A stretch of 64,000 nt of DNA from Candidatus Poribacteria bacterium (GTDB lineage: Bacteria; Poribacteria; WGA-4E; GCA-2687025), in contig OY762492.1 of NCBI GenBank assembly GCA_963665845.2, positions 2,048,001 through 2,112,000 of the forward strand. The letters are read 5' to 3'. How positions within the stretch are numbered: position 1 is the stretch's first letter; the number at the start of each line of letters is the position of its first letter. The position numbers and the translations under genes are program-made. Shown here in pieces: positions 3,308 through 7,588 of this stretch. Below the pieces are notes generated by a model. It was given only the letters and a program-made list of their open reading frames with translations, was not told where the DNA came from and ran no database searches.

Positions 3308-4047
3308 CGCGTTTCGGACCGCCGGCTAACGCTGACGGCGCCGCGCTGGTCGCCCAACGGGCAGTGGCTTGTGTGCCGCGGCTCCTCCGGCGACGGCAGG
3401 GTCAAGCCGCTGGACATCTACAAGTTGAACGTTTCGTCTGCCAAAGTCGTCAACTTGACAAGATCGCCGAATGAAAACGACGATTGGCCCTCATTTTCGC
3501 CGGACGGCAAGAAGATTCTGTTCTCCTCCGCTCGCGGCGATCAGGACAACAGAGTTTCGGACATCTATATCATGGACGCCGACGGACGAAACGAAGTGAA
3601 CCTGACAAACCATCCAGCCGGCGATTCCACACCGGAATGGTCTCCGGACGGCAAGAGAATCGCGTTCAAATCCTCTCCTAGGATTCGGTCCAACGAGGAG
3701 AAGGGGCATGACATCTATCTCATGAACGCGGACGGGTCGGAGGTGGAGCGGCTCACAACCGACGCGCGCTGGAAGACCGTGCGGAGCTGGTCTCCGGACA
3801 GCAAATGGATTTTGACCGGCATTCAGCTTCCTTGGGACGACAATCGGTATCAGATTCACCGCGTCCATGTGGAGACGAAACAGATTGTCAAGATCACGCG
3901 CGCCGATGAGTTCGTCTTCAGCGAGTTGGGTTTTGGCGGGCAAGGGCCGCTTCCTCTCCATTGATCCGGCGGGTAAAAAAAGCGGAATGGGGAGCGTTGA
4001 AAGCGGCGGACCGTAGCGATAATCAAACTCCGCAAGACGGCGACTAA
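3308..4047 (+). pseudogene. Truncated, frameshifted TolB-like (PD40) beta-propeller gene
   Basis: WSPNG/FSPDG/WSPDG repeats; no signal peptide or N-terminal blades; the family tail WVLAGKGRFLSIDPAGKK/AEWGALK...QDGD is split over two other frames (shift near 3900, A7 tract at 3975-3981). Confidence 0.8.
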
Positions 4048-4071
4048 TGCGCAGAAAGGCATAGCGGGCGC

Positions 4072-4138
4072 TTGACATCTCCCCCCGTATGAGCGACGAT
4101 ACAGCGACTTTTCCAAAACGGAGTATGCCGCAAGGAGC
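4072..4138 (+). promoter_or_regulatory. Repeated intergenic module with TTGACA (-35-like) and AAGGAG RBS; copies at 5284 (+) and 37197-37202 (-)
   Basis: A ~96-bp spacer is nearly identical in three places; the -10 match is weak. Confidence 0.55.
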
Positions 4139-4143
4139 ATGGC

Positions 4144-5259
4144 ATGGCCTTCTCCGCCTTCACAAAATCCTTGGCAGCGTTCGCGGCTGTCGTCTTCTCG
4201 CTTCTGCTGTGCGCGTCCGCGCCGGCAAGAGACTTTGTCCCAAAGGAAGATGTGACGAAACTGGAAAAGCCGACCATCTGCGTAAAGCGGGGAAACACGC
4301 TTCGACTCATCGACTGGGACGGCCAAAACGAGAGGGTCTGGATGACCGGGGAATTCAACCTTCCGGCAAGATTCAGCAGGGATGGCAAGCGCGCCTCTTT
4401 CATCGCCAGTACGGAGGATTTCGGTTGGTACACGCTGTTCATCCTGGAGCTGGAAACCGGGCGTCTGATCAACATGACGGAGCGCCTTAACAAAAAAGGA
4501 TATGAGCATATCTACATCCCATTCGCTGTGTGGTTTCCAGACGGGAGGCGTCTTGCATGCAGCGTCAACGACAGAAACAACCCGATCCCTGAGTATTCCG
4601 ACATCTATGCGTTGGATATCCGCGACGCGACGCTGGAGCAGCTCACCAACACGCCGCTTCAGGATGATATTTGGGCGTCCGTCTCTAGAGACGGCAAGAA
4701 GATCGTCTACAATTCCAATATCAGCGAAAAGGAGAGATCTGCGCTCGGTCTCATTGAAGATTACTGGCCTCACCATCTTTATACGATGAACGCCGACGGC
4801 TCCAAAGTCGTGAATCTGACGTACAGCCCCGCAACCGAGAGATTGCCTGAATGGTCGCCGGACGGCAAGAAGATCGCGTTCTTTGCGTTCGACCGCAAGG
4901 AGCAGGAAGGAGAGATACGCGCAACCGACCTTTTTATGATGGACCCAGACGGTTCCAATGTTGAGCGTCTCACATCCCGCAAAGACGGAAGGCGGGCAAG
5001 AGTCAGCGACTGGTCGGCGGACAGCAAGTGGATTCTGTTCAATATGACTCAAGACGACAACTCGCCGTACGAACTTTACCGCATTCATATAAATACGCGG
5101 GAGATCGTGCGCATTTCCATAGGCGGCTCCGCGAGGTGGGTTCATGCGGGCAAGAGCCGCTTCCTCTCCGTCAACCCTGCCGATAAAAAAAAAGCGGAAT
5201 GGGGAGCGTTGAAAGCGGCGGACCGTAGCGAAAAACCAACTCCGCAAGACGGCGACTAA
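4144..5259 (+). CDS. Secreted TolB-like PD40 beta-propeller protein with C-terminal WxxLK tail
   Basis: Signal peptide; SRDG/WFPDG/WSPDG repeats; tail LSVNPADKKKAEWGALK. Confidence 0.9.
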   Translation: MAFSAFTKSLAAFAAVVFSLLLCASAPARDFVPKEDVTKLEKPTICVKRGNTLRLIDWDGQNERVWMTGEFNLPARFSRDGKRASFIASTEDFGWYTLFILELETGRLINMTERLNKKGYEHIYIPFAVWFPDGRRLACSVNDRNNPIPEYSDIYALDIRDATLEQLTNTPLQDDIWASVSRDGKKIVYNSNISEKERSALGLIEDYWPHHLYTMNADGSKVVNLTYSPATERLPEWSPDGKKIAFFAFDRKEQEGEIRATDLFMMDPDGSNVERLTSRKDGRRARVSDWSADSKWILFNMTQDDNSPYELYRIHINTREIVRISIGGSARWVHAGKSRFLSVNPADKKKAEWGALKAADRSEKPTPQDGD

Positions 5260-5355
5260 TGCGCAGAAAGGCATAGCGGGCGCTTGACATCTCCTCCCGT
5301 ATGAGCGACGATACAGCGACTTTTCCAAAACGGAGTATGCCGCAAGGAGCATGAC

Positions 5356-6462
5356 ATGACGTCTATTGCCTTCTCAAATCTTCGCGCAGTTCTTGCCGCG
5401 GCTGTCTTCGTCGCTCTCTTGAGCGCGCCGTACCTTCATGCCGACCTCAAACCGATGGAGGATGTGGCGAAACTGACAAAGCCGACCGTCTGTTATGCCG
5501 GCGAAGAAGGGCTGTACCTCGTCGACTGGGACGGACAAAACAACAGGCTCTGGATCGAAGGCGTCTTCGGTCTCGCCCCTGAATGGAGCCGAGACGGTCG
5601 GCGCGCCTCCATCATCGCCGGCCGCAGCTACTTCCATTATATCCTGGACATTCAAACAGGGCGCTTGACAAACATGACGAAGCGGCTGGACGAGAAAGGC
5701 GTCCGCGCCGATACGTATTACTACACGGGCGCATGGTGGTTTCCAGACGGAAAACGACTCGCGTGCCGAGGATACGATGTGCATGACGGCTCAAGCCTTG
5801 CCGATGTCTATATTCTAGACATCAATAAGCTGACGTTCGACAACGTGAAACAAACGCCGACAGCGCAGGAAGCATGGATTTCGGTGTCTCCCGACGGGGA
5901 GAAGATTGCGTTCCATGCAAGTTACAACGCCCAAGACGACAAGTTCGACACAGAATCTCAGCAGGATCTGTTTGTCATGGACGCGGACGGCTCCAATGTT
6001 GTGAACTTAACAAACAGCCCCGCATACGAGAGAAACCCTGAATGGTCGCCGGACGGAAAGAAGATCGCCTTTGAAGCGGCGAAACGCCCCGAGCAGCTCA
6101 AGACCGGAATCAGAGGAGTGGACGTCTATGTGATGGACGCGGACGGCTCCAACGTTGAGCGGCTGACGACCCATGAAATTGGGAAATGGAAATCGCCAGG
6201 GACCTGGTCGCCAGACAGCAAGTGGATTCTGTTCGACATGCAGGTAGACCGCGGGCCGTACGACATCTACCGCGTTCATGTGGATACGAAAGAGGTTGTT
6301 CAAATCACACATGGGGCTGGCGGCGGTTCTCCCACATGGGTTCATGCGGGCAAGAGCCGCTTCCTCTCTGTTGATCCAGCGGGTAAAAAAAAAGCGCAGT
6401 GGGGAGCGGTGAAAAAAGCGGACAGCAGCCCGAATAGTCCAACTTCGCAAGACGGCGAATGA
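5356..6462 (+). CDS. Secreted TolB-like PD40 beta-propeller protein with C-terminal tail
   Basis: Signal peptide; PD40 repeats; tail LSVDPAGKKKAQWGAVK. Confidence 0.9.
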   Translation: MTSIAFSNLRAVLAAAVFVALLSAPYLHADLKPMEDVAKLTKPTVCYAGEEGLYLVDWDGQNNRLWIEGVFGLAPEWSRDGRRASIIAGRSYFHYILDIQTGRLTNMTKRLDEKGVRADTYYYTGAWWFPDGKRLACRGYDVHDGSSLADVYILDINKLTFDNVKQTPTAQEAWISVSPDGEKIAFHASYNAQDDKFDTESQQDLFVMDADGSNVVNLTNSPAYERNPEWSPDGKKIAFEAAKRPEQLKTGIRGVDVYVMDADGSNVERLTTHEIGKWKSPGTWSPDSKWILFDMQVDRGPYDIYRVHVDTKEVVQITHGAGGGSPTWVHAGKSRFLSVDPAGKKKAQWGAVKKADSSPNSPTSQDGE

Positions 6463-6487
6463 CGCGCTCAAATGAAAGGAGGCGCGC

Positions 6488-7588
6488 ATGCGGCGCGTCC
6501 GACGTTTCATTTGTCTGGGAATAACGCTGGCGGCTTTGCTTTTGATCGGCTCGCCGCCGGCTCTTCCCGACGGTCCGCCTCTTCCGAAGATACTCGAAGA
6601 CGTGACGAAACTTGAGAAGCCGACCATCTCATACGAAAGACGCGCGGCAGACGATCCGTACATAGAAGAGATTCGGCTGGTGGATCTGGACGGGCAAAAC
6701 GACCGGCTCTGGATGCGCGGAACTAGAGAGGTCGGGTTGTCTGGCGCGCCGAAATGGTCGCTGGACGGAAAACGGACGGCGGTTGTCGCGATCGATTCCA
6801 TTAAAGGAGTCTATGCGCCGTACATCCTTGATTTAGAAAAGGGGAAAGAAACGAGCCTCTATGACCTGCTTCCGCGCGATTTGGATTTTATCCATCTCAA
6901 TTGGTCGCCGGACGGCAGATGGCTTGCGATGGCAGGCACGGCGCGCATTGGACGCGGCTCCGACATCTACAAACTGCGCGTTGACACCGGCAGGTTGGTC
7001 AATTTGACTCGTAAGCGGTCCGCTTCCAACTGGCGCCCCAACTGGTCGCCGGACGGTAAAAAGATCGCGTTTGACGCTACCACGGAGTTGTACCGGGACA
7101 TCTACACGATCGACGCGGCGGACGGCAAAAACCGCGTCAAGCTGACGAATATGCCGCTTTCCTCAGAGCCGGCGGTTTGGTCGCCGGACGGGAAATGGAT
7201 CGCGTTTCAGTCTTATCTGCCGGAGGCTCCCTTCAGCGAAACCCCTGATTCTGCGGAGATGTATGTGATGCGTCCTGACGGCTCCAACGTTCAGCGACTC
7301 ACCTTCAACGACACTGGAGATTTTCCGAAGTGTTGGTCGCCGGACAGCAAATGGCTTGTTTACAGTCACTACTCTCGTCAAGCGGACGGCGGGCGTCTTG
7401 GCGGGCTGTACCGCATGCACATTGAGACGAAGGAGATTCGTCTCATCAAGCAAGGCGTTGCAGCAATCAATGCAACATGGGTCTTGGCGGGCAAGAGCCG
7501 CTTCCTCTCCGTTGACCCTGCCGGTAAAAAAAAGGCGGAATGGGGAGCGTTGAAAGCGGCGGAGGCGCCCGATGCGCCCGATGAATGA
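6488..7588 (+). CDS. Secreted TolB-like PD40 beta-propeller protein with C-terminal tail
   Basis: Signal peptide; multiple WSPDG repeats; tail LSVDPAGKKKAEWGALK; AAGGAGG RBS. Confidence 0.9.
   Translation: MRRVRRFICLGITLAALLLIGSPPALPDGPPLPKILEDVTKLEKPTISYERRAADDPYIEEIRLVDLDGQNDRLWMRGTREVGLSGAPKWSLDGKRTAVVAIDSIKGVYAPYILDLEKGKETSLYDLLPRDLDFIHLNWSPDGRWLAMAGTARIGRGSDIYKLRVDTGRLVNLTRKRSASNWRPNWSPDGKKIAFDATTELYRDIYTIDAADGKNRVKLTNMPLSSEPAVWSPDGKWIAFQSYLPEAPFSETPDSAEMYVMRPDGSNVQRLTFNDTGDFPKCWSPDSKWLVYSHYSRQADGGRLGGLYRMHIETKEIRLIKQGVAAINATWVLAGKSRFLSVDPAGKKKAEWGALKAAEAPDAPDE

Follow-up and report, generated by a model that had tools for sequence, protein, structure and literature searches.

Antigenic variation at pilE/pilS, vlsE and msp2 draws on silent cassettes, with recombination through conserved arms replacing a variable region, and integron cassette arrays hold tandem genes that are parted by a repeated element and differ in content between genomes. 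In Helicobacter pylori (PMC4552749), the Hop adhesin genes babA, babB and babC undergo gene conversion between loci; they carry conserved N- and C-terminal homology regions around a variable middle, form chimeric genes, appear as different paralogs at the same locus across genomes and contain a slippage-prone repeat. Poribacteria are abundant uncultured sponge symbionts with large families of exported repeat proteins, according to Kamke et al. (2014; PMC3909097), and a search of the Poribacteria and sponge-symbiont literature, with subscription papers outside its coverage, returned no report of a turnover mechanism for such families. Here we analyze an array of beta-propeller genes in a 64,000-nucleotide stretch (the window, G000:C1:2048001-2112000) of a Candidatus Poribacteria genome, G000. 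The array belongs to a genus-specific family of about 44 genes whose bodies have probably been exchanged between loci, each with one crossover in or just before a 35-bp core within a shared coding tail, the likely process being RecA-dependent ectopic recombination with no dedicated recombinase. The tail likely acts as a recombination joint through which the cell copies and swaps propeller domains.

We found 44 copies of the tail in G000 at 30 loci (20 single, 7 pairs, 2 triples and 1 quadruple, the last being the window array). A reversed control pattern had 0 matches in the genome, so the recurrence is far beyond chance. A full-length reading frame lies upstream of the tail in 42 of the 44 copies, 40 of these 42 have a signal-peptide-like start by a crude hydrophobicity test, and median body identity within the family is 37%. 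At the DNA level the tail core has 43 matches in G000 and 14 in G001, a sister species with ~91% nucleotide identity, and it is absent from the 29 other genomes of the class that were searched; propeller arrays with a related protein motif are widespread outside these two genomes. Close database relatives of the window propellers carry the name Candidatus Poribacteria, and the window gnd gene shares 76% identity with a Candidatus Poribacteria record against no more than 48% with the other 78 loci listed. A JGI metagenome scan gave one match, which lay outside any propeller gene.

All six window proteins contain PD40 repeats (PF07676) above cut-off, as expected of PD40 propellers, and score 73-125 bits against the TolB model TIGR02800, whose cut-off of 343 places them outside TolB proper. 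In an AlphaFold model of the protein of gene C (107-sequence alignment, predicted local distance difference test score 84), a signal peptide leads into a TolB-like propeller, which is followed by a short helix and then by a disordered tail modeled with low confidence. In this model the strand that closes the propeller ends at the tryptophan of the tail, so that the tail core is predicted to encode the closing strand and the short helix. The best fold match is the TolB beta-propeller (PDB 3iax, 2hqs; E 6e-16, TM-score ~0.6). The family proteins are likely exported six-bladed propellers, and they likely bind variable ligands outside the cell; they may also be the ‘surface binders’ that a first-pass annotation of the sequence had proposed, and may have a selected role in diversification.

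Beyond the core, the tail ends in a distal motif, V-x-P-x-G-K...W-G-x-L-K, which also terminates 51 unrelated proteins in G000. Signal-peptide-like starts are found in 46 of these 51 proteins versus 26% of 1606 controls, and the motif occurs on propellers of four further genomes (G019, G020, G023 and G028). No NCBIfam model or ESM Atlas cluster covers it, the Atlas gave no usable match for the tail, and TIGR04183, the type IX secretion system sorting domain, had no match in the 6 propellers, in 6 other motif proteins or in the tail alone. This uncatalogued motif is likely a phylum-wide export or anchoring signal. Genes for the motif proteins lie in the window at 18954-19775, 22097-24243 and 32937-34393, with about 45 more in G000.

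Independent movement of bodies and tails

The tails are more alike than protein constraint explains. Across 526 gene pairs with less than 40% amino acid identity, four-fold degenerate sites are identical at 2436 of 3137 positions in the core (0.78), at 0.63 in the next 17 codons and at 10431 of 24821 positions in the bodies (0.42), while genome codon usage predicts 0.32-0.39. Gene pairs are not independent, and the weight therefore rests on a comparison of one gene from each of 13 clades, which gave 0.73 for the core, 0.63 for the 17 codons that follow it, 0.65 for the N-terminal arm and 0.43 for the body; a column test of 53 body against 14 tail columns agreed (p=3e-4). The synonymous sites of the core are thus homogenized relative to the body, and at each end of the gene, 5′ and 3′, a conserved arm homogenized at the DNA level borders the variable middle, as in bab/hop-type genes.

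Bodies and tails also travel apart. In a tree of bodies (55 rows), the distal tails of sister genes differ, a single tail type recurs across clades, and the identities of body and tail hardly correlate (rho 0.16-0.18, 820 pairs). For 21 pairs body identity reaches 85% or more, and in 16 of them the mid-tail falls behind the body by over 5 points of similarity; the proportion is 12 of 17 once the pairs that include the frameshifted copy are dropped. Bodies copied recently retain 96-99% identity as far as the core, with divergence starting at about +17 to +38. Informative sites show that the crossovers did not fall on a single base, since one pair switched no later than +5 and another no earlier than +18. 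The 5′ edges vary among 14 pairs: some lie in the spacer or the ribosome-binding site, others within the signal peptide or, right ahead of the KPT motif, in the EDVTKLEKPT arm. The usual copied unit is the propeller domain from the N-terminal arm to the tail core. Among 93 database relatives, the two commonest tail types are carried by 11 and 13 distinct nearest bodies.

Comparison with the sister species extends this pattern to individual loci. Fifteen propeller loci were retrieved from G001, with full genes from 13. Three of them (L021, L026 and L032) keep the tail and 3′ flank of the G000 locus behind a body only 47-50% identical to the G000 resident, and a fourth (L027) is orthologous in both body and 3′ flank; between the two species there are thus both chimeric genes and different paralogs at one locus. 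Gene E of the window (36018..37130, minus strand; 370 amino acids) has a distal tail and 3′ flank, an Omp85 gene, that G001 retains behind an unrelated body. At this locus the result fits contraction of an array through a tail-to-tail crossover no less well than it fits conversion, and the tail is the joint in both. Gene D (6488..7588, plus strand; 366 amino acids; tail core at 7478) has a body 96% identical to a paralog at G000 393594, from which its signal peptide and distal tail differ. Because orthologous flanks are only ~91% identical between the species, the body of gene D was copied after the species split. Seven G000 arrays tested in G001 gave four empty sites, with gaps of ~140, 35, 0 and 168 bp, and three synteny breaks; in G001 gnd and the ABC ATPase gene are adjacent, with no propeller between them.

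The homogenized synonymous sites, the recent copies that break off at the tail and the differing cargo at matched G001 loci uphold the first-pass proposal that the coding tail serves as a homology arm. They are also what ordinary duplication and loss, with a tail conserved for protein function alone and no special role in recombination, leaves unexplained. In favor of such constraint, the core encodes a predicted closing strand and helix, the distal motif is common to many unrelated proteins, and some body columns are also high in codon identity (9 of 53 at 0.68 or above). Yet it does not account for homogenization at synonymous sites, for bodies 96-99% identical attached to divergent tails, or for locus-matched tails behind unrelated bodies. 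The incongruence of bodies and tails contradicts it, and we consider it highly improbable as the whole explanation.

A site-specific enzyme, either a tyrosine recombinase or an IS110 bridge recombinase, could instead use the core as its attachment site. Breakpoints do cluster at a core of ~26 bp that is nearly invariant in both species and absent from the 29 other genomes of the class that were searched, there are 10 IS110 matches in G000, and the non-coding ends of some IS110 copies share 8-11 nt with the core. Against this, crossover positions differ between pairs, and four folds of the tail gave no attC-like structure (z from -0.52 to +0.74), so that such a fold was rejected. G000 has only two tyrosine recombinases (PF00589), at 1.58 and 1.85 Mb; both are conserved in G001 and neither lies at an array, one being ~4 kb from a solo divergent propeller. 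The IS110 copies sit in a palindrome resembling a repetitive extragenic palindrome (REP-like; left end in 8 of the 9 copies listed, right end in 5 of the 9) and none sits in a tail, while the short core matches fall in mutually complementary parts of a hairpin; targeting of the tail by IS110 was therefore rejected, and we judge an enzyme of either kind to be very unlikely. The genome assembly is 90% complete, which bounds every statement of gene absence made here. Within that bound we found no integron-type integrase, as the first-pass annotation had supposed in calling the system integrase-free, and no match to a resolvase or a reverse transcriptase (PF00078). The last result led us to reject a diversity-generating retroelement; an integron was likewise set aside, there being no integrase beside the arrays and no attC hairpins between cassettes. 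RecA and MutS are both present. The variation in crossover position and the failure to find a dedicated recombinase make RecA-type ectopic recombination the most likely process.

On this account of recombination at the tail, protein constraint on the closing strand and the export motif would first have held the tail similar, and recombination there would then have homogenized it further, in a self-reinforcing loop that would also spread an otherwise avoided run of nine adenines (A9). Tail-to-tail crossovers would let arrays grow and shrink, and events using both arms would replace the propeller of a locus.

Several observations weigh against exchange through the tail, or limit its reach. Some recent pairs share their entire tail (for example 300210/3922267 and L029/L030). 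With so short a core (~26-35 bp) in a genome that has MutS, exchange events should be rare. Short-read contigs from three samples of a single study, which may include the source sample, contain no clear rearranged form; unitigs break at the tail, and no event within the population was seen. The signal of concerted evolution at species level is weak, mid-tail identity being 0.750 within G000, 0.815 within G001 and 0.748 between them, and core identity is equal within and between the two. In the more distant Poribacteria genome G023 (33 propellers, 11 regions) the tail effect is slight or absent. Finally, the tail does not explain the first colonization of empty sites, and insertion and loss are not polarized there, since in the three outgroups gnd is not linked to the ABC gene.

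The A9 run

Just before the conserved W-G-x-L-K end of the motif, 24 of the 44 tails contain an A9 run; two have A8, one A7 and one A10, and A9 is also present in 8 of 13 G001 tails. Such runs are concentrated in the tails, which hold 25 of the 30 runs of nine or more A or T on the chromosome, and the lysine triplet KKK uses the codons AAA-AAA-AAA in 25 of 30 tails, compared with 2 of 90 instances elsewhere. A one-base slip abolishes the conserved end of the motif in all 24 A9 tails. Of 93 database relatives 6 are without the motif, and 5 of these are shifted at the lysine run, possibly by sequencing error. The A7 and A10 alleles are reproduced by the short-read contigs and appear fixed rather than mixed, with no switching observed, bearing in mind that contigs drop rare variants. 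Coding-region runs of nine nucleotides are reported to be selected against in many bacteria (Baranov et al., PMC1088944).

This concentration of an otherwise disfavored run, the loss of the motif that slippage would cause and the shifted alleles are what one would look for in a selected diversification system, in which the core is kept as a DNA-level recombination hotspot and slippage at A9, in replication or transcription, removes the export motif and so alters display. However, homogenization alone would spread the A9 allele of a founder and accounts for the run without selection, and the slipped alleles look fixed in contigs, while the slipped database entries may be errors. We regard the selected system as quite unlikely. 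An A9 slip switch is possible. A fuller version, offered tentatively and in our view unlikely, would be a selected machine with no recombinase, in which a DNA-level hotspot in closing-strand codons shuffles ~44 exported binding domains among ~30 expression sites and A9 slippage cuts off the export signal, deciding between display and release.

The window array and its neighbors

In the window, the array runs in the order remnant A, B, C, D, with the inverted pair F and E 28 kb away. Gene A (3312..4047, plus strand) is a frameshifted propeller remnant, truncated by the loss of its 5′ third, that shares 94% identity with a paralog at G000 1.80 Mb; it has suffered two 2-nt losses, one of them in a CG run before the tail, and its tail has a 7-A run. 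Gene B (4144..5259, plus strand) encodes a 371-amino-acid PD40 propeller with a signal peptide, and its body is 89-91% identical to that of gene E (91% over 994 bp between 4144-5259 and 36018-37130). Gene C (5356..6462, plus strand; 368 amino acids; tail core at 6337) matches a paralog at G000 673720 at 88% identity in its body but differs from it in the distal tail, and gene F (37226..38299, minus strand; 357 amino acids) has a body 90% identical to a paralog at G000 3501268.

Three of the junctions between these genes share the near-identical block of ~220 bp that the first-pass annotation had pointed out, comprising the tail and a spacer: copy 1 at 3927..4143 (plus strand; spacer 4048-4143), copy 2 at 5137..5355 (plus strand; the tail core, 5137-5171, is followed by the A9 run, the motif with the stop at 5259, and the spacer, 5260-5355) and copy 3, inverted, at 37131..37348 (minus strand; the tail of gene F and a 95-bp spacer). 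Aligned to 5120-5360, the remaining copies show 91.3% identity across 231 bp and 92.4% across 224 bp. The distances from stop to ATG are 96, 96 and 95 bp, TTGACA and GGAG are present in the spacer, and the tail core recurs at 6337, 7478 and 36131; junctions, spacers and extra cores all lie at the places given by the first-pass annotation. The attached propellers are indeed very different upstream of the junctions, the nearest relatives of the bodies of A, B and F belonging to different clades, but downstream genes B and E are 91% identical.

Of the interpretation first placed on these junctions, the coding tail as homology arm stands, but a general unit of promoter plus gene does not. The 96-bp spacer accompanies few of the 44 tails, a genome-wide search having found 4 full and 2 truncated copies in G000, and a sigma-70 scan did not call it as a promoter. 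The fourth full copy, at 2.744 Mb, lies upstream of a BH0493-type uronate isomerase gene, and G001 has the same uronate-isomerase upstream sequence at the matching site, without a propeller, which indicates that the spacer is a captured housekeeping upstream region. As one product of exchange at the tail, the junction probably formed when a tail and the neighboring uronate-isomerase upstream region were fused to a family start, the spacer then being amplified along with the tail.

Upstream of gene A is a predicted promoter-like segment (3009..3125, plus strand) whose 3′ end is part of the family ribosome-binding site; it also precedes four other propeller loci including that of F (82-95% matches at G000 2979157, 3218171, 2742804 and 2086555). 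A miniature inverted-repeat transposable element (MITE) of 167-168 bp at 3126..3293, bounded by terminal inverted repeats and with a REP-like palindrome inside it, separates the segment from the remnant and appears to be an incidental insertion. G000 contains ~90 such pairs of terminal inverted repeats, 27 bp each, with 6-9 bp target duplications. MITEs were rejected as carriers of the family, since they occur at the 5′ ends of 1 of 30 clusters versus 10.5% of controls; at cluster 3′ ends they are slightly raised (5 of 30 versus 5.8%). The palindrome, which we take to resemble Neisseria dRS3, has ~900 matches genome-wide. REP-like repeats are not enriched at the ends of the 30 clusters, and some insertion edges fall in REP remnants.

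Short-read contigs match the frameshift region of gene A with 0 differences and reproduce its 7-A run, and since they bear out the changes tested, an assembly artifact is ruled out for those frameshifts; the full array is not covered by any one contig. In run X1, of which 73% was read, depth was low over genes C and D, and this was not counted as a signal. Separately, contig depths over window 1500-9500 in runs X1, X3 and X4 suggest that these samples hold another, related population, and one contig, not placed to a locus, fuses 3123 straight to a family start, as though the MITE and gene A were absent.

An Omp85/POTRA gene at window 34390-36021 (minus strand) overlaps the stop of gene E and is followed by two motif-bearing genes. 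Motif genes on both sides of such a gene were seen at 2 of 24 loci, one in G000 and one in G001, with a single motif neighbor at one further locus, and the Omp85 gene was rejected on this count as a dedicated propeller exporter. Other features were noted along the way. Directly upstream of a propeller, L145:4322-5977 (minus strand) encodes a 551-amino-acid protein that begins with a signal-like segment and matches nothing in Pfam, and a 700-bp part of its gene recurs near several G001 propellers. The window also holds a tandem array of about ten 79-bp units, each with a REP-like palindrome (51557-52488), and 126-bp periodic repeats of WD40 type in two long genes (16726-18735 and, on the minus strand, 55107-57233). 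The IS110-family elements, 89-94% alike and inserted at the same point of the palindrome (G000:C1 near 534696, 3504287, 3073743, 3698695, 527264 and others), are candidate bridge-RNA elements with a visible target.

Comparison with known systems

These results outline a mappable mechanism, in which a short coding arm moves binding domains between loci within ~9% species divergence and also rearranges the chromosome. Two testable features accompany it. One is the uncatalogued motif at the C-terminus of at least 51 unrelated proteins, most of them with signal-peptide-like starts; the other is the A9 run, liable to slippage, just before the conserved end of that motif. TolB (TIGR02800; PDB 3iax, 2hqs) shares PD40 repeats and fold with the propellers, which differ in the absence of an N-terminal TolB domain from the model and in forming dozens of paralogs outside a tol-pal context. 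The poribacterial repeat proteins of Kamke et al. are closer in origin, belonging to the same phylum and being abundant exported repeat and propeller proteins with an unresolved export route, but that work concerns WD40 proteins (PF00400) with a TIGR04183-like tail, and the terms ‘PD40’, ‘propeller’ and ‘gene conversion’ do not occur in its main text (PMC3909097).

With integron arrays the propeller arrays share tandem genes, a repeat between them and variable content, but here the repeat is coding and without an attC-like fold, crossovers fall at differing points, and the arrays have no integrase next to them. With the silent-cassette systems they share conserved-arm recombination that replaces a variable region, but the arrangement of silent donors around one expression locus has no counterpart here, a full frame being predicted from sequence in 42 of the 44 copies. 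The closest counterpart is the bab family of H. pylori, whose conserved terminal regions around a variable middle, chimeric genes, different paralogs at the same locus across genomes and slippage-prone repeat (PMC4552749) all have their like here. The differences are of protein and of scale: soluble PD40 propellers, for which Pfam and fold searches give propellers only, in place of outer-membrane Hop proteins; ~44 genes at 30 loci in place of three; a 3′ arm consisting of the ~35-bp core; the occupation of new sites as well; and a slippery run near the 3′ end, ahead of a putative export motif. The propeller family works like H. pylori bab conversion on a larger scale, and it is not a member of that family, because the proteins are unrelated.

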